Shown: positions 1 through 24,246 of the stretch, piece by piece
Numbering within the stretch: the stretch's first letter is position 1
How the letters are laid out: the number at the start of each line of letters is the position of its first letter
From: an uncultured bacterium
Lineage (GTDB): Bacteria > Fibrobacterota > Fibrobacteria > UBA11236
Assembly (NCBI GenBank): GCA_966238865.1
Contig: CBILQL010000001.1
Coordinates: 1 to 29,813, forward strand
DNA length: 29,813 bases
Direction: 5' to 3'
Notes under the pieces: generated by a model
Database searches by the model: none
Told to the model about the DNA's origin: nothing
The model's input: only the letters and a program-made list of their open reading frames with translations
Translations under genes and position numbers: made by a program

Positions 1-290
1 GCGACCGGCAGCGGGCCGACGGTCTGTACTTCTTCGTAGAGGTTGCGGCCGGTCCAGGGCGATCCCTCCCCGATGACGAAATTGCCCTTCCGGCTGTCTA
101 TGGTCATGGTATCCGGCGTGTAGGTCTGGATCTTGATGGCGTCAGCGCCCGATTCCTTGGCGGCCCGCAGGATGGCCAAGGCCTGCGCGAAATCCTGGTT
201 GTGGTTGGCGGACATCTCCGCGATGAGGTAGGCCGGCTGTCCGGGCCCCACCTTGCGCTTCCCGATGGTTATGCTTTCGACGGCGGGCAT
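1..290 (-). CDS. pseI: Pseudaminic acid synthase (NeuB family), 5' part; runs off the left edge
   Basis: Manual translation from ATG at 290: MPAVESITIGKRKVGPGQPAYLIAEMSANHNQDFAQALAILRAAKESGADAIKIQTYTPDTMTID. The IAEMSANHN and ADAIKIQTYTPDT motifs are typical of PseI. An AAAGGA RBS lies upstream. Not in the ORF track because no stop falls in the window. Confidence 0.92.
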   Translation of the reverse strand, partial: MPAVESITIGKRKVGPGQPAYLIAEMSANHNQDFAQALAILRAAKESGADAIKIQTYTPDTMTIDSRKGNFVIGEGSPWTGRNLYEEVQTVGPLPV

Positions 291-304: not shown

Positions 305-988
305 TCAACGCAGGCTCCGGATCAGCTCGAAGGGTTCGGCGGCGTGGAAGCCCGCGACGGAGCCCCAGCGCACCGCGGCGGCCTCGACGGCCTTCAGGGA
401 TCGGGGATGGGGGAATCCGCAGACCTCGGTCGGGTAGCGGGAGAGCGCCTCGAGCTTGGCCGCCAGGCTGCCGCCGATGTCCACGAACACCTCCGGGCGG
501 AAGGGAGCGCCGACGCGGCCGAAGCCCCACTCCGTCGCGGAGTGGATCTCGAAGGCCAGCACCTCCTTGACGCAATGGCCGGGCTTGGGCCGCGTGGCCG
601 TCAGCACGGCACGGGCGACCACCTGGTGATCGACGTTCAGGTCGCCGCCGTGATGGGTGTAGACGATCTCCGGGGACAGGTCGGCGACCAGCTTCTCCAC
701 CGCCTTGACTACGTCGAGGAGCGGCAGCGAATCGAAGCGGTTGTCGGGCAGGCCGCCGAAGAAAACCTCCTTGACCCCGAGCGCGTCCGCGGCCCTGCGC
801 GCATCGGCCTCCAGGCCCCTCACCTTGCCCATGTCGGCGGACTCCCGGCTTCCGGCGCGGGAGGTGGCCCCTTCGCCCAGGATGGCCACGTAGACCTCGT
901 CCCCGCCGGCCGCGTGCCGGGCCATGGCTCCGCCGCATCCCAGAACCTCGTCGTCGGGATGGGCGGCCACGGTCAGGATCCGTTTCAT
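305..988 (-). CDS. PIG-L/LmbE family N-acetyl-sugar de-N-acetylase
   Basis: C-terminal 227 aa of track ORF 305..1477. MKRILTVAAHPDDEVLGCGG, HHGGDLNVDH and FPHPRS motifs. ATG at 988 overlaps the upstream stop (ATGA) and follows a GGAGGAGGAG RBS. Confidence 0.9.
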   Translation of the reverse strand: MKRILTVAAHPDDEVLGCGGAMARHAAGGDEVYVAILGEGATSRAGSRESADMGKVRGLEADARRAADALGVKEVFFGGLPDNRFDSLPLLDVVKAVEKLVADLSPEIVYTHHGGDLNVDHQVVARAVLTATRPKPGHCVKEVLAFEIHSATEWGFGRVGAPFRPEVFVDIGGSLAAKLEALSRYPTEVCGFPHPRSLKAVEAAAVRWGSVAGFHAAEPFELIRSLR

Positions 989-1686
989 GTCTCCTCCTCC
1001 TCCGGAGGGATGGGGGTGATGGTCACGTCGGCGGCGATGCGCCCGTCGTAGAGGGCGGCCCGCTTGAACCGGTAGCGGAAACCCCCGTGATCCAGGTAGG
1101 CGGCGGGATAGCCTTCCGCGTCCAGCATGCGGATGAAATCGTGGAGCGCGGCCGGGCTCCCCAGGGGCGGGATCTCGCTCTCCGAAGGCTTGCGGCGGGC
1201 AAAGAGGACCGGCTCCCCGGACTGCGCCTCCGGAACGGGCTCGCGGGCCGCGAGGTCGCGGATCATGTCGGCGGCCAGGCAGGCGGCCCGGATGTAGATC
1301 TCCTCCGCTCCCCCCTCCAGGGACAGGGGCCGCTTGGCGTAGACGGCCCCGGCGTCCATGGCCTCCGCCATGCGCAGGGCGGTGAGCCGCGTCTCCCTGT
1401 GCCCTCGGACGATGAGGTTCTGCAAGGGGCTGCCGCCGCGCCCGTACGGCACGTCGGTCATGTGGAAGCAGACGCATTCATGTGCGCCGGTGACGGACGC
1501 CGGAACCTTCCAGGACCAGTGCAGGAAGAAGAGGTAACGGGGCCGGTACGTACCCAGGTCGAAACCGGCCAGGGCCCCGGGGGAGTCCAGGTACTGCCAC
1601 CGGCCGGGCAGCCCCGCCAACCTCTCCTCGAACACGCGGCGGTTCCAGGGCTTGCAACCCAGGACCAGGTAGTTCTTCCCCTCCAT
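985..1686 (-). CDS. Formyltransferase (Fmt-fold, sugar N-formyltransferase type B)
   Basis: FLHWSW, CFHMTDVPYGRGGSPLQNLI and MDAG motifs plus an Fmt C-terminal-like FIRMLDAEGYP region. Start overlaps the upstream stop (TGATG). Confidence 0.85.
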   Translation of the reverse strand: MEGKNYLVLGCKPWNRRVFEERLAGLPGRWQYLDSPGALAGFDLGTYRPRYLFFLHWSWKVPASVTGAHECVCFHMTDVPYGRGGSPLQNLIVRGHRETRLTALRMAEAMDAGAVYAKRPLSLEGGAEEIYIRAACLAADMIRDLAAREPVPEAQSGEPVLFARRKPSESEIPPLGSPAALHDFIRMLDAEGYPAAYLDHGGFRYRFKRAALYDGRIAADVTITPIPPEEEET

Positions 1687-2447
1687 CAGCCGTCCTCGCC
1701 GTATTCCAGGCCGAGGCGCAGGTAGACCTTGCGGCCGCCGACGCGGATATAGGCCCCTTTGTACGGGGGGAAGGTCCGGGCGCGGATCACGTCCAGCAAC
1801 TCCTTGCCGCTATACATGCGATCCGGATGGATTTCGTCCACCCCGTCCACGTCCCGGGTGCGATGGTAGGTGCCCTTTTCCCCGGTTTGGGGCTTCCTCG
1901 GGGCCGTCCCCGCCTTCAGGGAGGGCCAGGTATCCTGGATCAGGGACAGGGAGGCGCGCTCCAGCTTCCGGTACAGGGTCTCTCCCGTGTCCACGGGCTC
2001 CGCCTCCACGCGCCGCTGGGCGATGAGGTCCCCGGTATCGATGCCGGGGTCGATGTAGTGCAGGGTGGTCCCCGAAGGGGTCCCTTCGATGATGCTCCAG
2101 ACGTTCGGGTATTGGCCGCGGTTGTAGGGCAGCAGCGCGGGATGCAGGTTCACCACGCCGCGGGGGAACAGGGAGATGAACTCCGGCTTCACCACGTAGT
2201 CGAAGAGCACCGAGAAGGCCAGATCGCATCGCAAGGAACGGATCGCCTCCAGCACCCCGGGATCCCCCAGGCGCGAACCGTCGAACACCTGTCGATCGGC
2301 GCCCCGGAACTCCGAGCGCATCTCCGCGCCGAATTTCCGCTTCGGCTCCGGATGCCAGACCAGGCCGGCCACGTCCTCGCCGGACTCCTCGAGCCATTAG
2401 AGCGCTTGCCATCCCAACCAATTATTGCCCAGCAAGAGGAGGCGCAT
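1686..2447 (-). pseudogene. Formyltransferase (sugar N-formyltransferase type A) interrupted by an in-frame TAA at codon 17 (2397-2399)
   Basis: ATG at 2447 overlaps the pseG stop (TGATG) and reads MRLLLLGNNWLGWQAL*WLEESGEDVAGLVWHPE in one frame. It continues into VNLHPALLPYNRG and HYIDPGIDTGD, the canonical formyltransferase N/H/D motifs. The stop may be a true nonsense allele or a base-call error. Confidence 0.8.
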
Positions 2448-3547
2448 CAACCGCTTTCCTCGCCGTCCAGGGCGGCGGCCACCCGGGCCGCGCCCCGTCC
2501 GTCGATCAGATCCCGGCCTTTGCCGGCCATCGCAGCCCTGGCCGGAGCCGAGTCCAGGAGGTCCCGGATTTCCGCGGCTATGCGCTGCGGGAGGAGGTCG
2601 GCATGCCAACCGAGGTTCACGCCCATCCCGTCCAGATCCAGCCTGGCGGCGATTTCCCGCTGGTTCTCCGCCACCACCACCAGCAGGGAGGGCAGTCCCG
2701 CGTGCATCAGCTCCCAGACCGTGCTTCCCGCGGCGGATACGGCGATGTCGGCCCAGCCCATCAGGCCGGGCATGTCCCGGACCTCCCTCTGCAAGGCGAA
2801 GTCCAGGTCGGGACGATCGGCCACGGCGGCCTCCAGGGAGGCCAGGTTGGGATTCACCATGCCCACCACGACCTTGACGGCCATTCCGGGGAAGGCGATG
2901 CCCTGCAGGGCGCGGATCACCCGCAAGGTGGCATTGTCCGGATCGCCGCCGCCCATGGTGACCAGGATATTCCTGGGATCCTCCGACGGGTCCCGTGGCG
3001 CGGATCCGGCTCCGGACCCGGCGGGCGGGGCGAGGAACTCCTTCCGGAGCATGGCGAAGCGGCTGCCCAGCAGGAGCGCGGCTCCCGGACGCCGCTCCCG
3101 ATACCAGCCTTCCCGGGCATGGATGTTCTGGTTCAGGATCAAGTCCGCCTCATAGGGCGCGCACTCCCCGTTGTCGTCGATGACGAGGAGGCGGACGCCC
3201 CCCTCCTTCAGGATGCGCTGGTAGGGCCCGGTGAAGGGGTATCCGTCGGTCACCACCGCCGCGGCCCCGAGCCGACGGGCCAGCGCAAGCGACTCCTCCG
3301 CATCCTCCCGGGAAGCCGGGGCGGACCGGATCCGGCTCGCCTCCACGCCTTCGGATCGCAGTCGCGCCTCCAGGGAGCCGGAAGCCCCGCCCAGTAGGAA
3401 ATGGGCTTTCCCGCCCCTGTCCATCCAGGCCTGCGCCAGCGCCAGGCAGCGCATGACATGCCCCGCCCCGATCCCGGCCCACGCGTCGGCGCGGATCAGG
3501 ATGGGCTTCGCCTCCCGGCCGGCCCCGCCCACGATGGACGCGTTCAT
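2447..3547 (-). CDS. pseG: UDP-2,4-diacylamido-2,4,6-trideoxy-beta-L-altropyranose hydrolase
   Basis: C-terminal 366 aa of track ORF 2447..5419. IRADAWAGIGAGHVMRCLALA, ILVTMGGGD and DIAVSAAGSTVWE match the GT-B-like PseG/SpsG family. ATGA overlap at 3544-3547. Confidence 0.88.
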   Translation of the reverse strand: MNASIVGGAGREAKPILIRADAWAGIGAGHVMRCLALAQAWMDRGGKAHFLLGGASGSLEARLRSEGVEASRIRSAPASREDAEESLALARRLGAAAVVTDGYPFTGPYQRILKEGGVRLLVIDDNGECAPYEADLILNQNIHAREGWYRERRPGAALLLGSRFAMLRKEFLAPPAGSGAGSAPRDPSEDPRNILVTMGGGDPDNATLRVIRALQGIAFPGMAVKVVVGMVNPNLASLEAAVADRPDLDFALQREVRDMPGLMGWADIAVSAAGSTVWELMHAGLPSLLVVVAENQREIAARLDLDGMGVNLGWHADLLPQRIAAEIRDLLDSAPARAAMAGKGRDLIDGRGAARVAAALDGEESG

Positions 3548-5607
3548 GGCTTCCTGAACACCGGCTGCACCGCCTCGCCTTCGAGGAACTTCCCGATGTC
3601 GCCGTCGCGCATGGCGGCGGCCACCACCTCCATCGCCGCGCGGTAGACGCGCAAGGTGTAGTCGATATCCTCGGGTCCGTGGCTGAAGCAGATATTGTGG
3701 AACCCGAGCTGGAGCACGCCCCGCTTGAGGCATTCCTGCTGGAATAGGCTCTTCACGATCAGGGAGTCCGCGCCCGAGGGATCCTTGAAGGAGGCCACGG
3801 TGCGGGCGGGCAGGCCCTGGAGGAAAAGCCGGTCGGACAGGCCGTAATGCGCGGACAGGATCTTGAACCCGTCGGCGAGGCGGCCGCCCTGCTCCCGCAG
3901 ATGCCCGATGACGTTCTTCTCCCGCATCTCCTCGAGGGTGGCCTTGGCCGCGCACAGGGAGAGGGCCTCGCCGCCGAAGGTGAAGGAGAAGAAGATCCTG
4001 TCCATCAGGGCCATGAGGTCCCGGGGTCCGGCGATGGCGGCCAGCGGGAAGCCGTTGGCCAGGGCCTTGCCGAAGCAGGCCAGGTCCGGGGTCACGCCGA
4101 AATATTCCTGCGCGCCGCCCGGCGCGAGCCGGAAGCCGGTGATGACCTCGTCGAAGACCAGGAGCGCCCCGTTCCTGCGGGCGATGTCCTTCACCTTCCC
4201 GAGGAAACCCTCCGCGGGCGGGATGGCCCCGATGGGCTCCAGGATCACGGCGGCGATCCGCCCCGGATGCTCGGCGAAGAGCTTCTCCAGGCTGGCCGGA
4301 TCGTTGTAGTTGAAATGGTGGATGAGAGCTTGGGTGGATGCCGGGACGCCCAGGTTGCGGGTGGTGGAGCCGATGTACCAATCCTGCCAGCCATGGTAGC
4401 CGCAGCAGGCCACGTGCTCGCGGCCGGTATGCGCCCGCGCGATGCGGATGGCGCCGGCCGTCACGTCCGACCCGTTCTTCCCGAAGCGCACCATCTCGGC
4501 GCAGGGGACCATGTCCACGATGAGCTCGGCGACCTCCACCTCCAGGGGATGCGGGAGCGAATAGCTGACGCCCTTCTTGAGCTGCCTTTCGACGGCCTGG
4601 TTCACCCTGGGATATCCGTATCCCAGGATGACGGGGCCGAGGCCCAGGATATAATCCACGTATTCGTTGCCGTCCACGTCCTTGACGCGGCAGCCAGTCC
4701 CCTCCTCCAGGAAGATGGGCGCCACGCCCTGGACGAACTGGTTGTATCCCTTGCTGAAGGTCTGGGTGCAGGACGGGATCAGTGCCTCGGCCTTCCGCTT
4801 CCACGCCAGGCTCTTCGCCAGGGATCTTTCGAGCGGCTTCATGGCCGGCTCCGCGGCCAGAGACTTGTAATACCCTTCGTTGCGTACCGTGCCCATGTTC
4901 AACTCCTCGAGCGCCGGCTCCTTCGCCAGCAATGCCAGGACGTCCTCCATCCCGAAACCGTCGCCGCGGCCCAGCCGTCCGTATACCGCCCGCACGAACT
5001 CCAGATCGCCCGGGTCGTCCACGGTCCAGCGCAGGTCGCGGGCGGACAGGTCCTCGGGGCTCTCCACGTTGCGGATCCGGAACCGGCCCGCGTCCTTGAG
5101 GAAGGGGGTCACGTGCTCGCGCTCGGCCGGCTGCCGTGCCTCCTTCCAGGCCCTTTCCAGGGCCTCGAACGAGAAGACCTCGGTGTCCAGGCCGTCCGGG
5201 TAGGTGTAGCGGAGGGTATTGGAGACGTAGTCGAGGCCGCCGTCCAGGTAAACCCTCACCACCTTGTCCACCACGGACGGGTCGAGCAGCGGGCAATCGG
5301 CGGTGATGCGCACCACGACGTCCGCCCCTTGGGCCTTGGCCGCCTGATAGTACCGGTCCAGCACGTCCGTCTCGCTGCCGCGGTGGAATCCGTACCCCTC
5401 GGCGGCGCACCAGTCGCAAATGGGATCATCGGCTTCGGAACCCGTGGTGGCGACCACCACGACATCCAGCGACGGCGCCCGGCTGGCCCGGTCCAGCACA
5501 CGGCCCAGCATTGCGCGGCCGCCGACATCCATCAGCACCTTGCCGGGCAGGCGCGTGGAGCCCATGCGGGCCTGCACGACCGCGACGACTCTCGGTTTCC
5601 CGGGCAT
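3544..5607 (-). CDS. Fusion: SpsF/PseF-like cytidylyltransferase + class-III (GSA-aminomutase-like) PLP aminotransferase
   Basis: Start MPGKPRVVAVVQARMGSTRLPGKVL (ATG 5607, GGAGG RBS). The N-domain has RITADCP and RWTVDD. The C-domain has DVDGNEYVDYILGLG, FGKNGSD, FDEVITGFR and FGKALANG (PLP lysine). Confidence 0.9.
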   Translation of the reverse strand: MPGKPRVVAVVQARMGSTRLPGKVLMDVGGRAMLGRVLDRASRAPSLDVVVVATTGSEADDPICDWCAAEGYGFHRGSETDVLDRYYQAAKAQGADVVVRITADCPLLDPSVVDKVVRVYLDGGLDYVSNTLRYTYPDGLDTEVFSFEALERAWKEARQPAEREHVTPFLKDAGRFRIRNVESPEDLSARDLRWTVDDPGDLEFVRAVYGRLGRGDGFGMEDVLALLAKEPALEELNMGTVRNEGYYKSLAAEPAMKPLERSLAKSLAWKRKAEALIPSCTQTFSKGYNQFVQGVAPIFLEEGTGCRVKDVDGNEYVDYILGLGPVILGYGYPRVNQAVERQLKKGVSYSLPHPLEVEVAELIVDMVPCAEMVRFGKNGSDVTAGAIRIARAHTGREHVACCGYHGWQDWYIGSTTRNLGVPASTQALIHHFNYNDPASLEKLFAEHPGRIAAVILEPIGAIPPAEGFLGKVKDIARRNGALLVFDEVITGFRLAPGGAQEYFGVTPDLACFGKALANGFPLAAIAGPRDLMALMDRIFFSFTFGGEALSLCAAKATLEEMREKNVIGHLREQGGRLADGFKILSAHYGLSDRLFLQGLPARTVASFKDPSGADSLIVKSLFQQECLKRGVLQLGFHNICFSHGPEDIDYTLRVYRAAMEVVAAAMRDGDIGKFLEGEAVQPVFRKP

Positions 5608-5609
5608 TC

Positions 5610-6611
5610 TCAAACCTCCCCTTCCAGGCGGATGGCCCGCCCCTCGACGGACGATCGTTTCGCCGCCATCGCCACGTCGAGTACGCGCCGCGCCTCGAAA
5701 ACGTCCTGGCAGGACCTCGCGGCGCCCTCCAGGCAGTCCAGGAAATGCCTTAATTCGTCGAGGTACATCACGTTGGGGTTCCATCCTTCCGGGAGGGGGA
5801 AATCCTCCCAGGCCCCGGCGGCCTTGCGCCACAGGCGGACTCCCGAAGCGGCGTCCCACCGCAGCGTGCCTTCCGAGCCGATGATATGGCAGGTGCGGCT
5901 GTAGACCCGCTGGAGATAGTCCATGTGGACTTCGCCCACCGCGCCGCCGCGGAACTTGAGGATCAGGGAAGCCATGTCCTCGGTGTCGATTTCCAGGCAT
6001 CCGGTGCGCGCGGCGTGGCAGGACACCTCCGCCACTTCGCCGGCGAGCCAGCGCACATAATCGATCTCGTGGATGTCGTCCAGGATCACGCCGCCGCCCA
6101 GGCGGGCGTTTGCGCTGTACCCTTTGCGGTAATCCTCCCAGGGGTGCCAGTCCGGCAGGTACTGGCCGAACTCGGCCCGCACCGCCAGCGTGCGGCCGAT
6201 GGCTCCGGACTCCAGCAGCTCCTTCGCCCTGCGCAGGCCCGGATGGAATCGGAGGTTGCATCCGACCAGGGTGACCAGGCTCCTGGAGCGGACCTCGCGC
6301 AGCAGCTCGTCGAGCCCGGCCATTTCGTGCGCCAGGGGCTTCTCGATGAAGAGGGGGCAGCCCCTGCGCGCGGCGTCCAGGGCGGGCGCGACGTGGAAAC
6401 TGGTGGGCGTGGTGACGAAGACCGCCTCAGGCTCCGCGGCCCAGGCAGCGGCCGGATCGGCGAAAGCTTGCACGCCTAGCTTTTCCCGGATTTCGACGCA
6501 GCGGTCCTCCCGGGTATCCAGGGCGAGCACCTCCTGGCCCAGGGCGAGGAGGTTGCCCATGTGCCGCCTGCCGATGGAGCCGCCGCCGATGACGAGGAAC
6601 CGCCGCTTCAT
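5610..6611 (-). CDS. Gfo/Idh/MocA family NAD(P)-dependent oxidoreductase
   Basis: Rossmann GGGSIG, EKP, and GGGVILDDIHEIDY motifs. Confidence 0.9.
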   Translation of the reverse strand: MKRRFLVIGGGSIGRRHMGNLLALGQEVLALDTREDRCVEIREKLGVQAFADPAAAWAAEPEAVFVTTPTSFHVAPALDAARRGCPLFIEKPLAHEMAGLDELLREVRSRSLVTLVGCNLRFHPGLRRAKELLESGAIGRTLAVRAEFGQYLPDWHPWEDYRKGYSANARLGGGVILDDIHEIDYVRWLAGEVAEVSCHAARTGCLEIDTEDMASLILKFRGGAVGEVHMDYLQRVYSRTCHIIGSEGTLRWDAASGVRLWRKAAGAWEDFPLPEGWNPNVMYLDELRHFLDCLEGAARSCQDVFEARRVLDVAMAAKRSSVEGRAIRLEGEV

Positions 6612-6620: not shown

Positions 6621-7826
6621 CTATCCGGCATGATCCGCGAGCACCCGGGTAACCGTCGTGACAACCCTTTCGACATCCTCATCCTGCATGCCGTGGTACA
6701 TGGGCAGACTCAGGATCTCCTCGTAAGCCGCCTCGGCGACGGGACATAGACCCTCCCGGGTGCCGAAAGCCTTGCGGTAGAAAGGCTGCAGGTGGACCGG
6801 AAAATAGTGGACATTGGCACCGATGCCGGCCTTGCGCAGCTCGGCGAAGGCGCCGGCGCGATCGATCGCCAGCCGGTCCAGCGCCAGCCGCACCACGTAG
6901 AGGTGGTAGGCATGGCGCGCCTCGGCGGACCCCGCGAGGGGCCGAAGCAGGGGCGCCGGCGAACCGGGGCTGGAGGCGAAGGCGCCGTCGTAGCGGCCGG
7001 CGATCCGCCGGCGTCGCTCAAGCCAGGCCGGCAGCTTGCTGAGCTGGCTGGCGCCCAGGGCGCATTGGAAATCCGTGATGCGGTAGTTGTAGCCCAGCTC
7101 CTCCATCGCGTAGGCGAAGGTCCCCTTCTCCGTGCGCTGCCGGTGATCGGTGGAGATGCCGTGGTTGCGGAAGCGCTTCATGCGCCGGGCCAGATCGGGA
7201 TCGTCGGTGACGGCCATGCCGCCCTCCCCCGTGGTCACGTGCTTGACCGGATGGAAGCTGAAGAGGGTGATATCGGCCAGCGAGCCCACCTTGCGGCCGC
7301 GGTATTCCGCGCCCAGGGCATGGCAGGCGTCGGCGATCAGCCGCAAGCCCCGGCGATCGGCCAGCGCCCGCAGGGCCTGGTAGTCGCAGGGCTGTCCGGC
7401 GTAATCCACCGCCAGGATGGCTTTGGTCCGGGGCGTGACGGCCGCCTCCACCGCGGCAGGATCGAGGAGGAGGGATCCGTCCAGCACGTCGGCGAACATC
7501 GGACGGCCCCTCTGGAACACCACCGCGTTGGCCGTGGCCACGAAGGTGATGGGGGGGACGATGACCTCGTCCCCCTCCCCGATGCCGATGGCCTCCATGG
7601 CCATGTGCAGGGCGGCGGTCCCGTTGCAGACGGCAACGCCGTGCCTGGCGCCGGAGAATTCCGCCACCGCCTCCTCGAATCGATCGACGCTCGGACCCGT
7701 CGTCAGCCAATCGCCTTCGAGGACCCGCACCACCGCTTCGATGTCGTCGGGCCCGATGCTCTGGCGTCCGTAGGGGATGGCCTTGGGAGGATCCGCCTTC
7801 CCACGCCCGGTGTTCTCATGCATCAT
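6621..7826 (-). CDS. pseC: UDP-4-amino-4,6-dideoxy-N-acetyl-beta-L-altrosamine transaminase (DegT/DnrJ family)
   Basis: IPYGRQSI N-terminus, DACHALGA, FSFHPVKHVTTGEGG (PLP lysine), GYNYRITDFQCALG; pseB/pseG/pseI context. Start could be 7823. Confidence 0.9.
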   Translation of the reverse strand: MMHENTGRGKADPPKAIPYGRQSIGPDDIEAVVRVLEGDWLTTGPSVDRFEEAVAEFSGARHGVAVCNGTAALHMAMEAIGIGEGDEVIVPPITFVATANAVVFQRGRPMFADVLDGSLLLDPAAVEAAVTPRTKAILAVDYAGQPCDYQALRALADRRGLRLIADACHALGAEYRGRKVGSLADITLFSFHPVKHVTTGEGGMAVTDDPDLARRMKRFRNHGISTDHRQRTEKGTFAYAMEELGYNYRITDFQCALGASQLSKLPAWLERRRRIAGRYDGAFASSPGSPAPLLRPLAGSAEARHAYHLYVVRLALDRLAIDRAGAFAELRKAGIGANVHYFPVHLQPFYRKAFGTREGLCPVAEAAYEEILSLPMYHGMQDEDVERVVTTVTRVLADHAG

Positions 7827-10800
7827 AGTACGTCCTGAAATTCGCCAGCAGGCCGGGGTCCACGGCTATCGCATCCGGGAACCGTGTAGGCTCCGCGTCG
7901 GACAGGCGCGTGGCGTACCGGCCGGTCACCCCGCAATGCACGCCGGTGCCGTCCATGCCGATGTTGTCGATGTGCGATACCGTGGGATAGATGAAATGCC
8001 CGCGGTTGAGGTAGACCGTCAGCACCCAGTTGAGGGTCCAGACGTCCTTTGTGGTCCCCTGCAGGATGCCGTTCAGGGTCAGGGGGATGTCGCTCCCCCC
8101 CTGTGCCAGATCGATGCCGCGATCCAGGGCCTCGCGGGTCGCTTTGCGCAGGTCGCGCTCCAGCTTGCTCCAGGCGCGCTTCCAGGTGGCCCAGCCCCAG
8201 CTGCCGATGCGCGGCAGGAAATACAGGTCGTAGGGATAGCGCGCCAGCAGGGGCTCCGGGACGTTGACGGTATATCCGGAAATCCCGAAGACCTCCTCCC
8301 GGTCCCGGTAATGGGTGAGGGTCTTCCGCATGAATTCGAAGAAGCGCTTCTGGGGCACGCAATCGTCCTCCAGGAGGATGACGGTCTCGTGGCTTTCCAG
8401 GAGGCCGTCCACGGCGCCCATGATCGAGCGGGCCAGCCCGCGGTTCTCGGAGGCCTCGTGGATTTGGGGCCGCGTCCAGTCCACCGCACGGCAGAGCTTG
8501 CGGGTCCTTTCGACGGCCTCGGCATCCGCCCCGTTCCTCGCGCCGTCGCAGAAGATGTGGATGTTCCTGGCCCCCGAGTCCTTCAAGGCCGCGAGGACGC
8601 GGGCGGTGTGCTCTGGCCGCTTGTAGGCGACCAGCGCCACCGGAATGTCGTCCAGATCCATCGGCAGGCCGCGGGAGACCGCCGGCGCGGAGGCGGCCGG
8701 GGACGGCGCAGCCTTCCAGCCGTCCTCCGCGGATCGCGGGGTGGACGGCGGCGGAGCCGCAGGGTCCTTGCCGCGCGCGGCGACGATGCGAACCTGGTAG
8801 TTCCCGTTCCTCGCGGCGTGCTCGCGGCAGGCGCGGTGGAAGCCCTCTTCCCCGCGGGATTCCCAGACGGAGGCGTAGTCTGGAGGCCATTGGTGCTGGA
8901 CGTTCTCCGCGGCGAGGACCTCGAAACCGGCCGTTGCGAAGAGGTTCCCCAGGGTCATGGGATTCCAGGTGTACAGGTGCTTGTTCACGTCGGCAGGGTC
9001 GTAGGCGATCTGCGGGCCATCATGGGGGACCACGAACACGGCCCTGCCGCCGGGCTTCAGCTTCCGGCGCAGCAGCCGGAGGACTTCGAGGGGGGATTCC
9101 ACGTGCTCCAGGGCATGGTTGGAGACGATAACGTCGGCGCAGGCGTCCGGCAGATCGGCGGGGCTCTCGACGGCGTCGATGCCGCGCTCGATGGAAGCCT
9201 CCTTGCGTGCGACCTCGTTGATTTCCACGCCCAGCTTGGCCGCCCCCGGAAGGTTGCGCAGCAGGTACCCTCCCCCGCTGCCGAAGTCTATCACGGTATC
9301 GCCGGTCTTGACGTGGTCCCGGAACTTGAACAGGTTCGCGGCGCCGCCGAAGGCTCCCACCGATTTCTGCCACCGGAAGTAATCCTTCCCGTAGTACCCG
9401 CCCCCGCCCCCGGTAGCGGATTCCGCGCGGGCTTCCCCGGCGGGGTCCGCGCCGCGCGGGGCCCGCGCCGGCGCTCCGCCCGAGTCCCCGCCGGAACGGG
9501 AGAGGTGATGCGATGCCTGATCGGGGTGCACGGGATAGGACACGCGCGTGGCCTCCTGGAACTCGACCCTCGCTTCGTCCCGCTTGTCCTGGGCCAGGAG
9601 CAGGATGCCGTTCCAGAGGTGCAGGTGGCCGTCCATGGCCGCGTCCTTCCCGAGCATGCAGCGCAGGGTGGTCGCCAGAGCCTCGGGCAGCCGGCCGATG
9701 ATCAGCTCCTGCTGCAGGATGCGTCCGCGCTCGGCGGCCGGGGCCGAGGCGAACCCCAGGCTGTCGCGCATGGCCTGGAAAAGGGCGCCGCCTTCCCGGT
9801 AGGTCCGGGACAGTTCGTCGATCCAATGCGAGGCGAAGGAGAAGCCGAGGCGCGTCCTCCCGCGGGCGAACGGGCGGCCGGGCACCTTGCGCCCGCAGGT
9901 GAGGGTTTCGACCTGCCTGTGATCGGCCAGCAGCGGGCCGGCATGCTCGAGCCAGACCCGCCAGGGGCCGGGCCACCCGGGCTCCACGTCATGGAAGGCG
10001 ATCCAGCCGCCGTCCTTGACGAAGGGGTAGATCAGCTCGAAATCCTTGAGCACGTCGATATATTCGTGCGACGCGTCGATGAAGACGAAATCCAGCATGG
10101 GCCGCGACGACCAGGTGGGAAGCACGTCGTAGGTGAACCCCTTGAGGCCCTCGCAATGCCCCTCCACGCCCAACCGCTTCAGGTTGCCGAGACATTCCTG
10201 GTAGAAGTCGTGGGACTTGCCCATGATGCCGTCGTTGCCGCAGAAGGTGTCGATGGAATAGATGCGCTTGTCGCTGCCCATGCAGGCCAGGGCCATTGCG
10301 CTGGTGGACCGGCCCCGGTCCGCCCCCATCTCCAGGATATGGCCACCCTCCGGAACGGCCTTGGCCATTTCGAAGAGGAACTTCTCCTGCCCTTCGAGGA
10401 GCCATCCGGAGACGCTCTCCACCAGGGGCCGCGCCTCCTCGTAGGTGGCGTAGACCTTCTCCCGCGCGAAAGGATTACCCGGGACCGCGGACCAGCCGGT
10501 GGTTACGGGCCGCGGAACGGGGGCGGAGGCGTGCTTGGCCTCGCCCCCGGCATTCCCCTTCCAGCCCATGCCTTCGGCCATCCCGCGGACCTCCGCGTCC
10601 CCGGAGTTCCGGTCCAGGTAATGGGCCAGCATGGACAGGGCGGTGTCGGAGTCCCCCATCTGGCGGAGGAGGTCGGCGCTCCCCAGGATGGAGACCCTGT
10701 CGTAGGGATCGCGTTCCAGCCTGTCCGCGTAGGTGAGGAGCGCCTCCTTCACGGCGAGGTCGTCGGCCGGCGCCGCGGCGCGCGCCTCCCCCGGGAGCAT

Positions 10801-11418
10801 GGCCGGCGCTGCCACGGACGGCGGGTGGATGGTCAGCTGGGGAAGCCGGGTCTTGTGCACGCAGCTGTTCTCCTTACGCTCGTAGAAGGTGTTGAAGAAG
10901 AGGGCCGAGAAGTCCGCGGGGGATTCCAGGGAGAAGGCGTCCATGTATTCGCACACCGTCTGCAGGAAGGCGCGCCGCATCACGAAGAGCGCAAGCAGCT
11001 GGCCCGGATCCCGGAGGGCCGGGAAAGCCCTCGTGGCGGAGTCGAAGTCGGCCATGTCGGCCGCTGCCGTGAGGATCTCCCCGACCACCCTGCCGCCGCC
11101 GTCCGCCAGGCGGGCCGCCCAGGCCACGACCTGGAGGTCGAGCTCCTCCGACGCGCCGAATATCCCCACACTGCGATCCAGCATGCCCTCGTCCACGTCC
11201 ACGTTGTCCGGGGCCACGTACACGAACTCCCCTTCGGCCCGCGCCATCCCGGATTGCAGCGCCTCCGAGATTTCCTTGGAACCCGCGCCGGGCGGGAAGG
11301 CGACCTCTATGAACTGCAGGTTCCTATGCCGCGAACGCCTCAAGCTCGCGGCGGAACGGGATTCGCCGCGCGTCCCGTTCCCGCCGGAAACCAGCAATAC
11401 CGATATCAGGGGTTCCAT
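7816..11418 (-). CDS. ~1200-aa multidomain protein: degenerate GT2-like domain, TPR-like segment, class I SAM methyltransferase, TPR-like segment, second SAM methyltransferase, C-terminal GT-A glycosyltransferase
   Basis: Likely start ATG 11418 (MEPLISVLL) after GGGAGG; the track start is 11463. MT1: ILEMGADRGRS, FIDASHEY, GGWIAFHD. MT2: VIDFGSGGG, NHALEHV, LKPGG. GT: PVALVAYKRPEH, IFCDG, NRGLARS, ILLEDD, FGISGY. Confidence 0.8.
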   Translation of the reverse strand: MEPLISVLLVSGGNGTRGESRSAASLRRSRHRNLQFIEVAFPPGAGSKEISEALQSGMARAEGEFVYVAPDNVDVDEGMLDRSVGIFGASEELDLQVVAWAARLADGGGRVVGEILTAAADMADFDSATRAFPALRDPGQLLALFVMRRAFLQTVCEYMDAFSLESPADFSALFFNTFYERKENSCVHKTRLPQLTIHPPSVAAPAMLPGEARAAAPADDLAVKEALLTYADRLERDPYDRVSILGSADLLRQMGDSDTALSMLAHYLDRNSGDAEVRGMAEGMGWKGNAGGEAKHASAPVPRPVTTGWSAVPGNPFAREKVYATYEEARPLVESVSGWLLEGQEKFLFEMAKAVPEGGHILEMGADRGRSTSAMALACMGSDKRIYSIDTFCGNDGIMGKSHDFYQECLGNLKRLGVEGHCEGLKGFTYDVLPTWSSRPMLDFVFIDASHEYIDVLKDFELIYPFVKDGGWIAFHDVEPGWPGPWRVWLEHAGPLLADHRQVETLTCGRKVPGRPFARGRTRLGFSFASHWIDELSRTYREGGALFQAMRDSLGFASAPAAERGRILQQELIIGRLPEALATTLRCMLGKDAAMDGHLHLWNGILLLAQDKRDEARVEFQEATRVSYPVHPDQASHHLSRSGGDSGGAPARAPRGADPAGEARAESATGGGGGYYGKDYFRWQKSVGAFGGAANLFKFRDHVKTGDTVIDFGSGGGYLLRNLPGAAKLGVEINEVARKEASIERGIDAVESPADLPDACADVIVSNHALEHVESPLEVLRLLRRKLKPGGRAVFVVPHDGPQIAYDPADVNKHLYTWNPMTLGNLFATAGFEVLAAENVQHQWPPDYASVWESRGEEGFHRACREHAARNGNYQVRIVAARGKDPAAPPPSTPRSAEDGWKAAPSPAASAPAVSRGLPMDLDDIPVALVAYKRPEHTARVLAALKDSGARNIHIFCDGARNGADAEAVERTRKLCRAVDWTRPQIHEASENRGLARSIMGAVDGLLESHETVILLEDDCVPQKRFFEFMRKTLTHYRDREEVFGISGYTVNVPEPLLARYPYDLYFLPRIGSWGWATWKRAWSKLERDLRKATREALDRGIDLAQGGSDIPLTLNGILQGTTKDVWTLNWVLTVYLNRGHFIYPTVSHIDNIGMDGTGVHCGVTGRYATRLSDAEPTRFPDAIAVDPGLLANFRTYYDA

Positions 11419-11461
11419 GCGCCTCCCATGGGGATGGGTACCATTCCAATGAATTCCATCC

Positions 11462-11491
11462 ATTCTATGAAATCGGGGATTTGGAATTCAA
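11462..11491 (-). promoter_or_regulatory. Putative sigma70 promoter for the glycosylation operon
   Basis: Minus strand TTGAAT (11491-11486), N18, TAGAAT (11467-11462), about 45 nt upstream of ATG 11418. Confidence 0.6.
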
Positions 11492-11623
11492 CGCGCGAGG
11501 CGGGCCCGCGGGATGGCGGTTCCCCGCTTAGGTTTTTTGAGGGCGGCCGCCCCTTCCCCAACTTCCTCAATCCCGGCGGACGCGGGCCTCTGCAGTCTCC
11601 GGTAGCGGATGGATCGACGGGCA

Positions 11624-11632
11624 TGCTATCCT
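11624..11632 (+). promoter_or_regulatory. Putative extended -10 element for pseB
   Basis: TGCTATCCT fits TGnTAnnnT, 36 nt upstream of ATG 11669. The same TGCTAnnnT pattern occurs before three other genes in the window. Confidence 0.45.
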
Positions 11633-11668
11633 AGGAAAATGAGCATGGAGCGAGGGAACGGAGAGTTC

Positions 11669-12793
11669 ATGGATCTGACCAACAAATCGATTCTCGTGAC
11701 GGGAGGAACAGGTTCGTTCGGCCAGAAGTTCCTGCGGATGACCCTGGAACGCTTCACCCCCGCCCGCGTCGTCGTGTATTCGCGCGACGAGATGAAGCAA
11801 TGGGACATGGCCAACGCCTTCAAGAACCACCCCAAGAAGGATCTGATCCGCTTCTTCATCGGCGACGTGCGCGACAAGGAGCGGCTGCACCGCGCCTTCA
11901 GCGGCATCGACTTCGTGATCCACGCCGCCGCCGTCAAGATAGTCCCGGCCGCGGAATACAACCCGTTCGAGGCCATCAAGACGAACATAAACGGCGCCAT
12001 GAACATCATCGATTGCGCCATCGACCAAAAGGTGAAGCGCGTGGTGGCGCTCAGCACCGACAAGGCGTGCAATCCCGTGAACCTCTACGGCGCCACCAAA
12101 CTCTGCTCCGACAAGCTCTTCGTCGCCGGCAACAGCTACGGAGGCCACGGGGAAACCCGCTTCGCCGTGGTCCGCTACGGCAACGTGATGGGCAGCCGCG
12201 GCTCTATCATCCCGCTTTTCCTGTCCCTGGCCCGCACCAGGGAGATCCCCATCACCGACACGCGCATGACGCGCTTCATGATCACCCTGGATCAGGGCGT
12301 GGAGCTGGTCTGGCACGCCTTGGCCAATGCCGTGGGCGGCGATATCTACGTGCGGAAGATCCCTTCCATGAAGCTTCCGGACATCGCCCAGGCCTGCGCC
12401 CCCGGCGCGAAGCTCCGGATCATCGGTGTCCGCCCCGGGGAGAAGCTGCACGAGCAGATGATCAGCGTCGAGGACGCGGAGCATACCTGGGAGTACAAAT
12501 CCCATTACAAGATCCTGCCCTCCATCAACGGATGGGACAAGGACCCCCGCCGCATCGGGAACGGACGGAAATGCCCGGACGGGTTCTTCTATACCAGCGA
12601 CAACAACACGCAGTGGCTGTCCATCCCGGAGCTGAGGGCCTGGATGATCAAGGAGGCCACCCACCCGCACGGCATCCTCAAGGCCGAGGCCGAACTGGCC
12701 AGGAAGCTGGGCGACCCCGGCGCCGAAGGCAAGGAGGACTGGTCGCCGGACGCAAAATCCGCCGCTCCGCAGGATTCCTCCCTGCCGCGTTGA
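11669..12793 (+). CDS. pseB: UDP-N-acetylglucosamine 4,6-dehydratase (inverting)
   Basis: MDLTNKSILVTGGTGSFG, HAAAVKIVP, STDKACNPVNLYGATKL, VRYGNVMGSRGS, GVRPGEKLHE. Start 11669 is preferred to the track start 11609. Confidence 0.92.
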   Translation: MDLTNKSILVTGGTGSFGQKFLRMTLERFTPARVVVYSRDEMKQWDMANAFKNHPKKDLIRFFIGDVRDKERLHRAFSGIDFVIHAAAVKIVPAAEYNPFEAIKTNINGAMNIIDCAIDQKVKRVVALSTDKACNPVNLYGATKLCSDKLFVAGNSYGGHGETRFAVVRYGNVMGSRGSIIPLFLSLARTREIPITDTRMTRFMITLDQGVELVWHALANAVGGDIYVRKIPSMKLPDIAQACAPGAKLRIIGVRPGEKLHEQMISVEDAEHTWEYKSHYKILPSINGWDKDPRRIGNGRKCPDGFFYTSDNNTQWLSIPELRAWMIKEATHPHGILKAEAELARKLGDPGAEGKEDWSPDAKSAAPQDSSLPR

Positions 12794-18458: not shown

Positions 18459-19172
18459 TTACCAGCGTTCCCGCAAATGCCACAACCAGCGGCGTCCGCC
18501 GGCCGCGGACATCCAAAGGGTGACCGGCAGCAGCACCACGTCGCGGATCAGGGAGAACCAGGTCTCGCCGGCGTCGGCGGCGCCGGCGATGTCGAAGCAG
18601 CCGCAGGCGATGCCGAGGCCGCGCGCCAGCGCCTGGGCCAGGGCGATGATGAACATGACCATGAGCAGGCCCGTCAGGGCCGAGTACTCCCGCTCCCAGG
18701 GCGTCAGGAGGAGGCCGACGGCGACCACGATCTCGAAGGACGAGAGCCAGAGGGAGAAGGGATTCACCAGGAAGGCGGGGAGGAACTGGTACTGCGCCAC
18801 CAGCAGGGCGAAATCCGCCGGGTCCGAGAACTTGGGCCAGGCCGCGGCGAGGAACATGACGGCGAGGCCGATGCGGAAGGCGGAGAGCAGGATCGGCGAC
18901 GCGGCGCCCCCGGTCTTCCGGGCATAGGCAATGGCGGCGGCCAGCACGGCGATCACTCCGAGGATAATCGCCTTGTGGGCCAGGAATCCCTTCCAGGCCA
19001 CCTTGAATCCGGCGGCGATGCCGTCCATGGCGCCCAGGGACGGCCAGCCCTCCGGCTTGGGCAGGATCTCCGGGCTGCCCACCCAGGCCACGGCGGAATC
19101 GTTGACGAGATTGTTGATCACGGCGAGGAGGACGCTGGCAATCAGGGCTCCCCAGAGCACGCGGATTTTCAT
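18459..19172 (-). CDS. MauE/DoxX family membrane protein with an N-terminal extension
   Basis: RIGLAVMFLAAAWPKFSDP, FEIVVAVGLL and GLGIACGCF motifs; several TM segments. Confidence 0.8.
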   Translation of the reverse strand: MKIRVLWGALIASVLLAVINNLVNDSAVAWVGSPEILPKPEGWPSLGAMDGIAAGFKVAWKGFLAHKAIILGVIAVLAAAIAYARKTGGAASPILLSAFRIGLAVMFLAAAWPKFSDPADFALLVAQYQFLPAFLVNPFSLWLSSFEIVVAVGLLLTPWEREYSALTGLLMVMFIIALAQALARGLGIACGCFDIAGAADAGETWFSLIRDVVLLPVTLWMSAAGGRRWLWHLRERW

Positions 19173-19235
19173 GGCTTCGATCTCTTCCTTCCCGGCCCCG
19201 TCGAAGGCCTTCGGCTGGCAAGGAAAGTACTTAAT

Positions 19236-19244
19236 TGCTAAGAT
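19236..19244 (+). promoter_or_regulatory. Putative extended -10 element for metF
   Basis: TGCTAAGAT, 13 nt before ATG 19258. Confidence 0.5.
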
Positions 19245-19257
19245 TCAAACCCATACC

Positions 19258-20145
19258 ATGGGCTTCTTCGACCGCCTCAGCCGGGGCATTCCGACCCTGT
19301 CCTTCGAGCTCTTCCCGCCCAAGAACCCGGCGGGCTGGGGTACCCTGTACGGCACCCTGGGCGAAATCTCGAAGCTGTCCCCGGACTTCATCTCGGTGAC
19401 CTACGGCGCCGGCGGATCCACGCGGTCAAAGACCGTCGACCTGGTGTCGCGCATCCAGGGCGAGCTCGGCATCGAAACCATGGCCCATCTCACCTGCGTA
19501 GGCCACAGCCGGACCGAGATCGGCGAGATCCTCTCGTCCCTGGAGGCTTCCGGCGTCCGCAACGTGCTGGCCCTGCGCGGCGATCCGCCCAAGGGCGACA
19601 AGGCCTTCAAGCCCCATCCCGAGGGATTCGCCCACGCTTCCGATCTCATCGCCTTCATCAAGGGCCGATACGGCCTCAATATCGGCTGCGCCTACTACCC
19701 CGAGAAGCACGTGGAGGCGGCGAGCCTCGAGCAGGACCTCGCCTACCTCAAGCTCAAGCAGGACAACGGCGGCCAGTTCACCGTCAGCCAGCTGTTCTTC
19801 GACAACGAGTCCTTCTACCGGTTCCGGGACAAGGCCCTCAAGGCCGGAGTGACCATGCCCCTGGTGGCCGGCATCATGCCGGTGCTGGAAATCGGCCAGC
19901 TCGGTCGTTTCAAGGAGCTTTCCGGCTGCGCCATCCCGGACAGCCTGGTGGCATCCCTCGGCGACGGCCGGAACGGCGACGTGGTGGATCGCGGCGTGGA
20001 ATACGCCACGAACCAATGCCTAGACCTGCTGAAGAACGGCATCGCCGGAATCCATCTCTATTGCCTCAACCGCAGCCACAGCGCCGCGCGCATCACCGGG
20101 AATCTACGCAAAGCCGGCCACTTCCCCGTTCCAGCCAAAGCCTGA
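19258..20145 (+). CDS. metF: 5,10-methylenetetrahydrofolate reductase
   Basis: LSFELFPPK, FISVTYGAGGS, MAHLTC, LALRGDPP, YPEKH, SQLFFD, GIHLY. Start 19258 is preferred to the track start 18931. Confidence 0.95.
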   Translation: MGFFDRLSRGIPTLSFELFPPKNPAGWGTLYGTLGEISKLSPDFISVTYGAGGSTRSKTVDLVSRIQGELGIETMAHLTCVGHSRTEIGEILSSLEASGVRNVLALRGDPPKGDKAFKPHPEGFAHASDLIAFIKGRYGLNIGCAYYPEKHVEAASLEQDLAYLKLKQDNGGQFTVSQLFFDNESFYRFRDKALKAGVTMPLVAGIMPVLEIGQLGRFKELSGCAIPDSLVASLGDGRNGDVVDRGVEYATNQCLDLLKNGIAGIHLYCLNRSHSAARITGNLRKAGHFPVPAKA

Positions 20146-20166
20146 ACGGGCTCCGAGGACCGGCCC

Positions 20167-21453
20167 TTGTTCTCCCGACGCTTCTCCCGCCCTACGGAGC
20201 ATAGTCCGCTATGGGCGGCCCGCGCGGCGCGCGAGGCCTCGGGCGCGCCGGTCCTCGATCTCACCCGCACCAATCCCACCGCCGCCGGCATCGCCTACCC
20301 TGCCGATCTCCCCTCCCTGCTGGCCCGCGACTCCGTGCTCCGCTACGATCCGTCCCCGCGCGGATCGCGGTCCGCCCGGGAGGCGGTGGCCGCCTACCTC
20401 GGCGGCGCGGACCCCGACCACATCCTCCTCACCGCCAGCACCTCCGAAGCCTACGGCTTCCTGTTCAAGCTGCTCTGCGACCCCGGCGACGAAGTCCTCA
20501 TCCCCACGCCCACCTACCCCCTGTTCGACGCCCTGGCCGAGCTGGACCACGTGTCCCTGGTCCGCTATCCGCTGCGTTACGGTGACCGCCGGGACGAGGG
20601 CCGGGGTCGTCAGGACGAGGGGCGGGGTCTCCGCGGCGATGGCGCCGGTGCCGGATCCGGATGGCGCGCCGATTCCGCCTTCCTCCGCCGCATCGTCTCC
20701 ACCCGCACCCGGGCCCTCATCCTGGTGACCCCGAACAATCCCACCGGCCACGCCGCCGATCCCGCCGAGATCGCCGTCTACCTGGAGCTGGCCCGGGAGC
20801 ATGGCCTGGCCCTCATCGTCGACGAGGTCTTCTCCGAATACCTCCTGGCCGGCGGCCGCACCCGTCCCGTGGTCTCGGACGGGCCCCTCGTGTTCACCCT
20901 GAACGGCCTGTCCAAGCTGGCCGGACTGCCCCAGCTCAAGCTCGGCTGGATCCATGCCCAGGGGGATCCGGCGGCGGTGCGCGCCGCCCTGGAGCATCTC
21001 GAATGGATCGCCGACGCATACCTGTCGGTGAACACGCCGGTGCAGGAGGCCTGCGCCGACCTGCTGGCCCGGGCCCCCGCCTTGCGGGCCCCCATCCTGA
21101 CCCGCCTGCGGGCAAACCTGTCCACGGCCCGGCGTCTACTCCCGGAAGGAAGCGCCTCGCCGGGAGGAGCGCCGGCACGCCTCCGGGCCCTGGTCCCGGA
21201 GGCGGGATGGTCCCTGGTGCTCGCTGCCGATCTCCCCCCCTCCCCGGGCTCCGCCCGCGGGGATGCCCCGGACGAGGATGCCTTCGCCCTGGGCCTGCTG
21301 GAGCGGGGTGTTTACGTCCATCCCGGCCACCTCTTCGGCTTCGAGGAGGAGGAAGGCCGCCTGCACCTGGTCGTCAGCCTGCTGGGGCCGGAAGCGGAAT
21401 TCGCGGAAGGATTGCGGCGCATCGCCGCCTACGTGGAGGAGTTGCATGCCTGA
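20167..21453 (+). CDS. PLP-dependent aminotransferase class I/II
   Basis: LDLTRTNP, TASTSEAY, PTYPLF, VTPNNPTG, IVDEVF, NGLSKLAGLPQLKLGW (PLP lysine). TTG start. Confidence 0.88.
   Translation: MFSRRFSRPTEHSPLWAARAAREASGAPVLDLTRTNPTAAGIAYPADLPSLLARDSVLRYDPSPRGSRSAREAVAAYLGGADPDHILLTASTSEAYGFLFKLLCDPGDEVLIPTPTYPLFDALAELDHVSLVRYPLRYGDRRDEGRGRQDEGRGLRGDGAGAGSGWRADSAFLRRIVSTRTRALILVTPNNPTGHAADPAEIAVYLELAREHGLALIVDEVFSEYLLAGGRTRPVVSDGPLVFTLNGLSKLAGLPQLKLGWIHAQGDPAAVRAALEHLEWIADAYLSVNTPVQEACADLLARAPALRAPILTRLRANLSTARRLLPEGSASPGGAPARLRALVPEAGWSLVLAADLPPSPGSARGDAPDEDAFALGLLERGVYVHPGHLFGFEEEEGRLHLVVSLLGPEAEFAEGLRRIAAYVEELHA
20592..20629 (+). repeat. In-frame 21-nt-period tandem duplication
   Basis: GGACGAGGGCCGGGGTC (20592-20608) and GGACGAGGGGCGGGGTC (20613-20629), 16/17 identical, encoding RDEGRGR/QDEGRGL. 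Confidence 0.85.
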
Positions 21454-22357: not shown

Positions 22358-22402
22358 AACCGGCAGGATACCCGACCCGGCCGGACCTGGCTGGGAAAGC
22401 GA

Positions 22403-23572: not shown

Positions 23573-23628
23573 GGATGAACTCCTCCGGTCCGATTCGGCG
23601 GAGAGGAGCGCATCCTCTCCGCCGCGAT

Positions 23629-24246
23629 TCAAATCATCCCCAAGGCCGGATCCCGCTGGTACAGGTAGTCGAGGTCGCAGGCTTCCGCCGGCATCCAGTG
23701 CTTCTCCTTGTCCCACCATTTCACGTTGCAGCCGATGGCGTCGGTGCGGTCCAGGCGCGCCGGGCGGCCGGCCAACATGTCCTCGACCGCCTCCTCCAAT
23801 TCGCGGGTCTGCACCTTGGACGCGTCGCGGGGGCTGTTGTCCATGCGTCCGCTGTAGACGAGCCGGTCGTCCGGGCCGAAGAGGAAATAATGCGGGGTGC
23901 GTTCCGCGCCGTAGGACCGGGCCACCAACTGGGACTCGTCCCGGAGGGACAGCCAGCCGAAGCCCTTCTCGGCCATGCGCGCCTTCACGTGATCGAAGTC
24001 GTCGGCGGGGTGATCCTTGGTCTCGTTGCTGTGGATGGCGGTCATGGAAATGCCCAGGCTCTTCAGCCTGTCGAACAGGGCCACCATGCGATCCTCGCTG
24101 CCCACCACGTAGGGGCAATGGTTGCAGGTGAAGAAGATCAAGGTGCCCTTCGCGCCCTTCACGTCCGCGAAGGTGTGCGTGCCCCCGGTATGGCCGGGAA
24201 GCTTGAAATCCGGGGCCTGGGCCCCCGTGGGAAGTACGAAGCTCAT
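23629..24246 (-). CDS. Thioredoxin-family (AhpC/TSA, redoxin) protein
   Basis: APDFKLP, FTCNHCPYV (CxxC), YGAERTP, YSGRMDN, AIGCNVKW. ATG 24246 follows GAGGAG. Confidence 0.88.
   Translation of the reverse strand: MSFVLPTGAQAPDFKLPGHTGGTHTFADVKGAKGTLIFFTCNHCPYVVGSEDRMVALFDRLKSLGISMTAIHSNETKDHPADDFDHVKARMAEKGFGWLSLRDESQLVARSYGAERTPHYFLFGPDDRLVYSGRMDNSPRDASKVQTRELEEAVEDMLAGRPARLDRTDAIGCNVKWWDKEKHWMPAEACDLDYLYQRDPALGMI

Follow-up and report, generated by a model that had tools for sequence, protein, structure and literature searches.

A conserved de-N-acetylase and formyltransferase gene pair in the pseudaminic acid operon of an uncultured Fibrobacterota bacterium and its predicted role in N5 formylation

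Pseudaminic acid (Pse) is a sialic-acid-like sugar that coats flagella, pili, capsules and O-antigens, and its N-substituents decide antigenicity and recognition. Variants at N7 arise through PseH, PseJ and PseA; we know of no described route by which the N5 group, derived from UDP-N-acetylglucosamine (UDP-GlcNAc), is changed. The enzymes of Pse N-modification have been called "largely unknown" (PMC11040635). We analysed a 29.8 kb stretch of DNA (the window) that is the whole of one contig (C1) of a metagenome-assembled genome (MAG; 902 contigs, 5.35 Mb, completeness 84%, G+C approximately 68%). Its minus strand carries an operon that reads, in the direction of transcription, pseC, an oxidoreductase gene, pseF fused to an aminotransferase gene, pseG, two formyltransferase genes (A and B), a PIG-L/LmbE-family de-N-acetylase gene (PIG-L) and pseI (Table 1). 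From the profile matches, PseB, PseC, PseG, PseI and PseF form a complete set in the window, with PseI partial at the contig end.

Table 1. Features of the pseudaminic acid operon and the divergent pseB-type gene, with window positions and the supporting matches.
Feature	Position	Strand	Basis
pseC aminotransferase	6621..7826	-	TIGR03588 448.1 bits (cut-off 423.5)
Gfo/Idh/MocA oxidoreductase	5610..6611	-	NCBIfam matches to iolG-like and UDP-GlcNAc 3-dehydrogenase-like models
pseF cytidylyltransferase fused to class III (GSA-aminomutase-like) aminotransferase, 687 residues	3544..5607	-	CTP_transf_3 and Aminotran_3 in a single frame; PRK06209 430.9 bits
pseG (UDP-2,4-diacetamido-2,4,6-trideoxy-beta-L-altropyranose hydrolase), 366 residues, without fused GNAT	2447..3547	-	TIGR03590 208.6 bits (cut-off 153.6)
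Formyltransferase A, PseJ-like, 253 codons, in the PseH slot; predicted formyltransferase of the 4-amine (future N7)	1686..2447	-	Formyl_trans_N and N_formyltrans_C
In-frame TAA at codon 17 of formyltransferase A	2397..2399	-	Sequence
Formyltransferase B, 1ZGH/PF21553 family, 233 residues; predicted to formylate the amine exposed by PIG-L	985..1686	-	PF21553 75.5 bits
PIG-L/LmbE-family de-N-acetylase, 227 residues	305..988	-	PF02585 95.7 bits
pseI, N-terminal 96 codons, ended by the contig edge	1..290	-	TIGR03586 93.8 bits (model positions 2-68)
pseB-type 4,6-dehydratase, divergent	11609..12793	+	Polysacc_synt_2 317 bits

The genes of the operon are tightly packed. The ATG of pseG overlaps the stop of the upstream fusion gene as ATGA (3547..3544), the TGA of pseG and the ATG of A have one nucleotide in common at 2447 (TGATG), and the TGA of A and the ATG of B likewise have one nucleotide in common at 1686. 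B and PIG-L overlap by an ATGA at 988..985, and a 14-nt spacer leads from PIG-L to pseI. An earlier note on this DNA, made from the sequence alone, had placed two formyltransferases and a de-N-acetylase between pseG and pseI as translationally coupled genes. The genes, their coordinates and the 1-4 nt stop/start overlaps within A-B-PIG-L were confirmed, as were the motifs it named (NLHP and DTG in A, CFHMTD and DAG in B), and AHPDDE was also found in PIG-L.

Compared with the canonical PseB-PseC-PseH-PseG-PseI-PseF pathway of Campylobacter and Helicobacter, five of the six enzymes were recognisable in the window, several of them above equivalog cut-offs. The window differs from that pathway in having no PseH above the cut-off and in adding two Fmt-fold enzymes, a deacetylase, an oxidoreductase and the PseF-fused class III aminotransferase. 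A PseH encoded elsewhere in the genome was considered and set aside, as the window and the rest of the 84%-complete MAG gave only three weak GNAT matches (21-23 bits against a cut-off of 93), a result that at this completeness does not prove absence.

The first of the two formyltransferases has a well-defined set of relatives. Formyltransferase A matches the Pfam models Formyl_trans_N (PF00551, 74.8 bits) and N_formyltrans_C (57 bits), and its C-terminal domain is the dimerisation domain of sugar N-formyltransferases (PF18216). Ranking the characterised sugar formyltransferases by PDB search score placed PseJ (6CI2/6CI4) first, with an E-value of 9e-27, 97 bits and approximately 45% identity over 128 residues, followed by 4NV1 (WbtJ-like), 6NBP, 6V2T, Rv3404c, VioF and ArnA, with the 3-N-formyltransferases lower. 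We take 4NV1, 6NBP, 6V2T, Rv3404c and VioF to be formyltransferases for the C4 amine of NDP-4-amino-4,6-dideoxyhexoses. The catalytic core of A (Asn100, His102 and Asp137) was invariant in 12 orthologues, and this Asn-His-Asp core is common to A and PseJ. PMC11040635, citing Reimer et al. 2018, gives PseJ as the final enzyme needed for the Pse5Ac7Fo route. A differs from PseJ in being a 253-residue protein with a C-terminal PF18216 domain, as in WbtJ/VioF-type enzymes, whereas the PseJ chains are 192-217 residues long and the match ends before PF18216; the copy of A in this assembly also carries an in-frame stop. Like PseJ, A would stand in for PseH in a pse operon that has none. It is thus well supported by these comparisons that A is a PseJ-type enzyme predicted to formylate the PseC amine in place of PseH. 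The earlier note had proposed such a replacement for one of its two formyltransferases, and PseJ as the best solved relative, the position in the PseH slot and the lack of a PseH match in the MAG bear it out; the note had missed that PseJ is already characterised. A PseJ-type replacement of PseH is itself known.

The in-frame stop in A had also escaped the note. The longest open reading frame of A starts at GTG 2372, and the ATG at 2447, which overlaps the pseG stop, lies 25 codons upstream in the same frame, with the TAA at 2399..2397 between the two. We found that the N-terminal segment containing the TAA is conserved in 13 orthologues of 252-258 residues, in which the column of the TAA itself is variable (Q, R, K, D, A or E). 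A start at GTG 2372 was ruled out, given the conservation of the 25 upstream codons in these orthologues and the overlap of the ATG with the pseG stop. Logan contigs from two public rhizosphere metagenome runs (X1 and X2) were equal to the window over 2066..3744 except at two bases (plus-strand 2399 A>T and 2433 C>G), which on the coding strand change TAA to AAA (Lys) and Leu5 to Phe, the residue of several orthologues at codon 5. Recoding or an alternative genetic code was likewise ruled out, as both runs read AAA. The TAA allele was seen in no independent run, two further runs having no contig over that stretch. The TAA was taken as a minority (strain) allele or an assembly error and not as the state of the population, and A was treated as a 253-residue protein, with the TAA read as K for searches only.

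We examined 80 genome loci from many phyla that encode a B homologue, onto which the window proteins and two GNAT references were mapped by tblastn. The denominators are 72 loci with enough downstream DNA, 74 loci for the slot upstream of B and 70 B/PIG-L pairs. In 70 of the 72 loci PIG-L was no more than 2.5 kb away from B, in 61 it immediately adjoined B, and in 67 pseI was nearby. The 4-nt ATGA overlap between B and PIG-L was kept in 62 of the 70 pairs, across phyla; no fusion of B to PIG-L, which would have been Rosetta-stone evidence, was present among the 80 loci. The slot directly upstream of B was more varied. It was occupied by a PseH-type GNAT, usually fused to PseG, in 47 of the 74 loci, by an A-type enzyme in 10 (with 3 more in which pseI lies between) and by a B-like domain fused to PseG in 7. 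A-type genes were encountered in at least 7 phylum-level groups, and the exact order pseG-A-B-PIG-L-pseI in at least 8 loci. From the slot counts and the conservation of B and PIG-L across these loci, we read the arrangement as a variable slot, apparently for the N7-acyltransferase, followed by a constant two-gene B/PIG-L module. The trio described by the earlier note therefore holds as far as the coupling of three genes is concerned, but not as a three-gene unit, since B and PIG-L form the constant pair and A sits in the variable slot. The window is a recurrent variant and an ordinary member of a widespread form of the pathway, not a one-off, and the B/PIG-L module itself is very common, occurring in thousands of uncultured bacteria. 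Cultured strains that have the pair include Brevifollis gellanilyticus NBRC 108608, Pseudanabaena biceps PCC 7429, Lusitaniella coriacea LEGE 07167 and Moorena bouillonii PNG.

Further variation was noted at the slot. In Opitutae and some other operons (L015:8211-9947; L016, L017, L042, L057, L072 and L089), PseG carries a C-terminal B (1ZGH)-type domain in place of the PseH GNAT, and a stand-alone B and PIG-L follow, giving two B-type domains and no GNAT. The PseG-fused domain in Opitutae matched the B family with an hhalign probability of 99%. In one Planctomycetales locus (L079:9174-9950), an S-adenosylmethionine-dependent methyltransferase, not an N-acyltransferase, lies between pseG and B.

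The occurrence of B-type domains in the PseH slot is relevant to a different explanation of the window, in which the stop codon is real and this strain has no functional A, the PseC amine (N7) is formylated by B, and PIG-L yields a free N5. The assembly does show a TAA at codon 17 of A, and Ca. Kuenenia stuttgartiensis is described as making a sugar that bears one formyl group beside a free amine (preprint 10.64898/2026.04.20.719630). However, the otherwise near-identical contigs of X1 and X2 read AAA at codon 17, the TAA allele appears in no run (with two of the runs lacking a contig there), and the N7 amine is already occupied wherever B co-occurs with PseH. We consider this explanation very unlikely.

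The second formyltransferase belongs to a family that is far less well described. PF21553 was the sole Pfam match of B (cut-off 27 bits), with no match to PF00551 (Formyl_trans_N) at E <= 0.01 and NCBIfam matches that were weak (27-32 bits). Its closest structure is PDB 1ZGH (E 2.5e-54, approximately 50% identity, 179 residues aligned), with which it has in common an FHMTD..GRGGSPLQNLI core and the C-terminal PF21553 domain. Where the canonical enzymes have Asn, 1ZGH has Val and B has Cys. 1ZGH was deposited as a "methionyl-tRNA formyltransferase", and its kinship with B names a fold, not a reaction. In a profile alignment by hhalign, Cys73, His75 and Asp111 of B corresponded to Asn100, His102 and Asp137 of A, so that B departs from the Asn-His-Asp triad of the canonical formyl-tetrahydrofolate (formyl-THF) transferases Fmt, PurN and ArnA. 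B retains His75, Asp111 and the folate loop H-x-T-x-V-P-x-G-R-G, aligned to the catalytic core of A and Fmt, and all three are invariant among the aligned family members.

The B family is large and conserved, with more than 7500 sequence clusters at E <1e-5 and approximately 65% identity across Polyangia, Verrucomicrobia, Chloroflexi, Planctomycetes, Acidobacteria and Cyanobacteria. The nearest relatives of B itself are from Polyangia (67-74% identity), and in the phylum of the window the gene was found in no more than 2 of the 201 genomes sampled, a distribution that points to horizontal acquisition of B, or of the operon.

Because B has Cys or Val in place of the catalytic Asn, falls below the threshold of the Formyl_trans_N model and resembles a structure for which no published function was found, it may not be a sugar N-formyltransferase at all; it could instead hydrolyse formyl-THF, serve as a binding subunit or be a pseudo-enzyme, or the two proteins could act beyond the Pse precursor, on the finished glycan or an acceptor. 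This is improbable in view of the near-universal position of B between pseG and pseI, its coupling to PIG-L and the invariance of the His, the Asp and the folate-loop motif, and the modifications in Ca. Kuenenia were seen at the level of the CMP-sugar (cytidine monophosphate sugar; preprint 10.64898/2026.04.20.719630). The retained His75, Asp111 and loop, together with the PseG-fused B-type domain that fills the PseH slot in Opitutae operons with no other N-acyltransferase, count for B as a probable working formyltransferase.

Enzymes of the LmbE family (MshB, BshB and PIG-L) typically act on 2-acetamido sugars. The PIG-L of the window resembles the zinc de-N-acetylases of this family (MshB, BshB1, TT1542 [1UAN] and diacetylchitobiose deacetylase) in PF02585, the AHPDDE metal/base motif and the downstream D-H, and differs from them in that the usual H-P-D-H is N-x-D-H in its subfamily. 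AHPDDE and D..N.DH were conserved in 71 orthologues, with D100-H101 invariant. Its nearest relatives are BshB1-like proteins and TT1542. NCBIfam scores placed it in none of the characterised equivalogs (BshB1, BshB2, MshB and Mca), the best score being 57.1 bits for BshB1 (cut-off 182.5). It is predicted to act on a 2-acetamido Pse precursor, whereas its known relatives act on GlcNAc-inositol or GlcNAc-malate.

The minimal operons are informative as to what this pair might do. Several of them (e.g. L003) consist of pseB, pseC, pseF, pseG::GNAT, B, PIG-L and pseI, with no extra aminotransferase. The sugar made by such an operon has two nitrogens, one acetylated from UDP-GlcNAc and the other by PseH, so B would have a substrate only if PIG-L frees one of them. 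Removing the acetyl group just added by PseH would be futile, which argues for N5 over N7 as the target of PIG-L. Since LmbE enzymes act on 2-acetamido sugars and the 2-acetamido group becomes N5, an exchange of acetyl for formyl at N5 is the most likely role of PIG-L and B and is the reading we favour.

Applied to the window, the proposed scheme runs as follows. A, an N10-formyl-THF-dependent PseJ-type sugar N-formyltransferase replacing the acetyltransferase PseH, would formylate the C4 amine placed by PseC on UDP-4-amino-4,6-dideoxy-beta-L-AltNAc, the nitrogen that becomes N7 of the nine-carbon sugar. PIG-L and B would act as a fixed, co-translated pair, in which PIG-L, as a zinc deacetylase, would strip the acetyl derived from UDP-GlcNAc from the C2 nitrogen (the future N5), and B would formylate the amine thus freed. 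The predicted product is 5,7-di-N-formyl pseudaminic acid, which the neighbouring oxidoreductase and aminotransferase may modify further. By calculation, the monoisotopic mass falls from 334.138 for Pse5Ac7Ac to 320.122 when one acetyl is replaced by formyl and to 306.106 when two are. The sequences show directly which genes are present and in what order, their catalytic motifs, how well the pair is conserved and that A and PseH replace one another; the substrates, the order of the steps, the formyl donor of B and the product are predictions. We give the scheme as a whole about an even chance of being right.

The oxidoreductase and aminotransferase genes raise the question of a third nitrogen. 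The module that they form in the window (3544..6611, minus strand) recurs, fusion included, in loci from Acidobacteria and Cyanobacteria. The PseF::aminotransferase fusion was also found in loci L004/L005, and the oxidoreductase co-occurs with the aminotransferase in related loci. Loci with the aminotransferase had on average one more acyltransferase, a stand-alone GNAT, than loci without it; the window lacks that GNAT. The pattern suggests that a third amino group may be made on the sugar where the module is present.

A competing account of the window builds on this possibility. PIG-L would leave N5 free, as in Ca. Kuenenia, and B would formylate the third amine produced by the oxidoreductase and the PseF-fused aminotransferase. 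Both enzymes are encoded in the same operon, and the extra acyltransferase of aminotransferase loci suggests that an additional amine is made and capped there, in which case the window would lack the GNAT to cap it. CMP-nonulosonates with a free amine exist (preprint 10.64898/2026.04.20.719630), and a pentadeoxy (i.e. triamino) nonulosonic acid has been reported for Flexibacter maritimus (PMC4052302). Against this, 37 complete loci that have no class III aminotransferase still carry B and PIG-L in unchanged form, coupled by the 4-nt overlap, which argues that the conserved role of B is independent of a third amine, and the identity of approximately 65% among B proteins across phyla argues for one conserved substrate. 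We therefore regard this account as quite unlikely for the window, and the capping of a third amine, which the earlier note had listed as an option for the second formyltransferase, is disfavoured as the general role of B by the same 37 loci.

The formyl exchange at N5 preferred here has precedents in related sugars. 5-N-formyl-legionaminic acid is known from Halorubrum (PMC6137143). The nonulosonate cluster of Ca. Kuenenia stuttgartiensis (SugarBase preprint 10.64898/2026.04.20.719630) likewise has a deacetylase and a formyltransferase inside the operon, and mass spectrometry revealed CMP-sugars in formylated and deacetylated form, including CMP-nonulosonates with one formylated and one free amine. 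By analogy, the two cases make the exchange chemistry plausible. The Kuenenia cluster differs from the window in that it is described as legionaminic acid-like (Leg-like), its product keeps one free amine and its enzymes are assigned by position only. Our literature search on a deacetylase/formyltransferase pair in Pse synthesis found nothing beyond this preprint.

Several points weigh against the proposed scheme. We know of no report of a 5-N-formyl or 5,7-di-N-formyl pseudaminic acid, and of no assayed enzyme in the B (1ZGH) family or in this PIG-L subfamily; the literature search found no paper on the function of 1ZGH. B is without the catalytic Asn, with Cys in nearly all aligned members and Val in P0113 and 1ZGH, and its N-terminal half is shortened. 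A carries a stop codon in this assembly, and the independent runs neither bear out nor rule out that allele for the original sample. The oxidoreductase and aminotransferase may create a third amine for which the operon has no dedicated acyltransferase. Finally, re-formylation need not follow deacetylation, as the Kuenenia sugar keeps its free amine (preprint 10.64898/2026.04.20.719630).

The B/PIG-L pair is the most widespread candidate for a change at N5; it counts over 7500 sequence clusters, and one structure (1ZGH) has been solved. The window adds little over other carriers of the pair; it serves as a clear case of an operon predicted to formylate both nitrogens. A broader proposal is that B and PIG-L form a general N5 acetyl-to-formyl module in thousands of soil and aquatic bacteria, combined here with a PseJ-type enzyme and with the oxidoreductase and aminotransferase to give an undescribed di-N-formyl, possibly triamino, nonulosonate. 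In this full form we hold the proposal to be speculative and unlikely. If it were true, 5-N-formyl pseudaminic acids would be a common, unreported class of sugars, and the orphan structure 1ZGH would gain its first function.

Some additional observations were made on the window. Logan contigs of runs X1 and X3 depart from it before position 34, and the last residues of the partial pseI frame are unlike PseI, so the contig end near 1..33 may have been misassembled. A 3-nt deletion at 891..894 within the PIG-L gene was seen in a single short X1 contig, which has unmatched ends on both sides and may come from a related organism. Immediately upstream of pseC, a gene at 7816..11463 (minus strand) encodes a 1215-residue protein with Methyltransf_24 (approximately residues 377-493) and Methyltransf_23 (approximately 719-851) domains, flanked by N- and C-terminal regions of approximately 370 residues without a Pfam match. 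This protein could be a transferase or a modifier for the sugar of the operon. Outside the operon, 18459..24441 holds unrelated genes for a MauE-like protein, MTHFR, a class I/II aminotransferase, a methyltransferase, a radical SAM protein and a redoxin.

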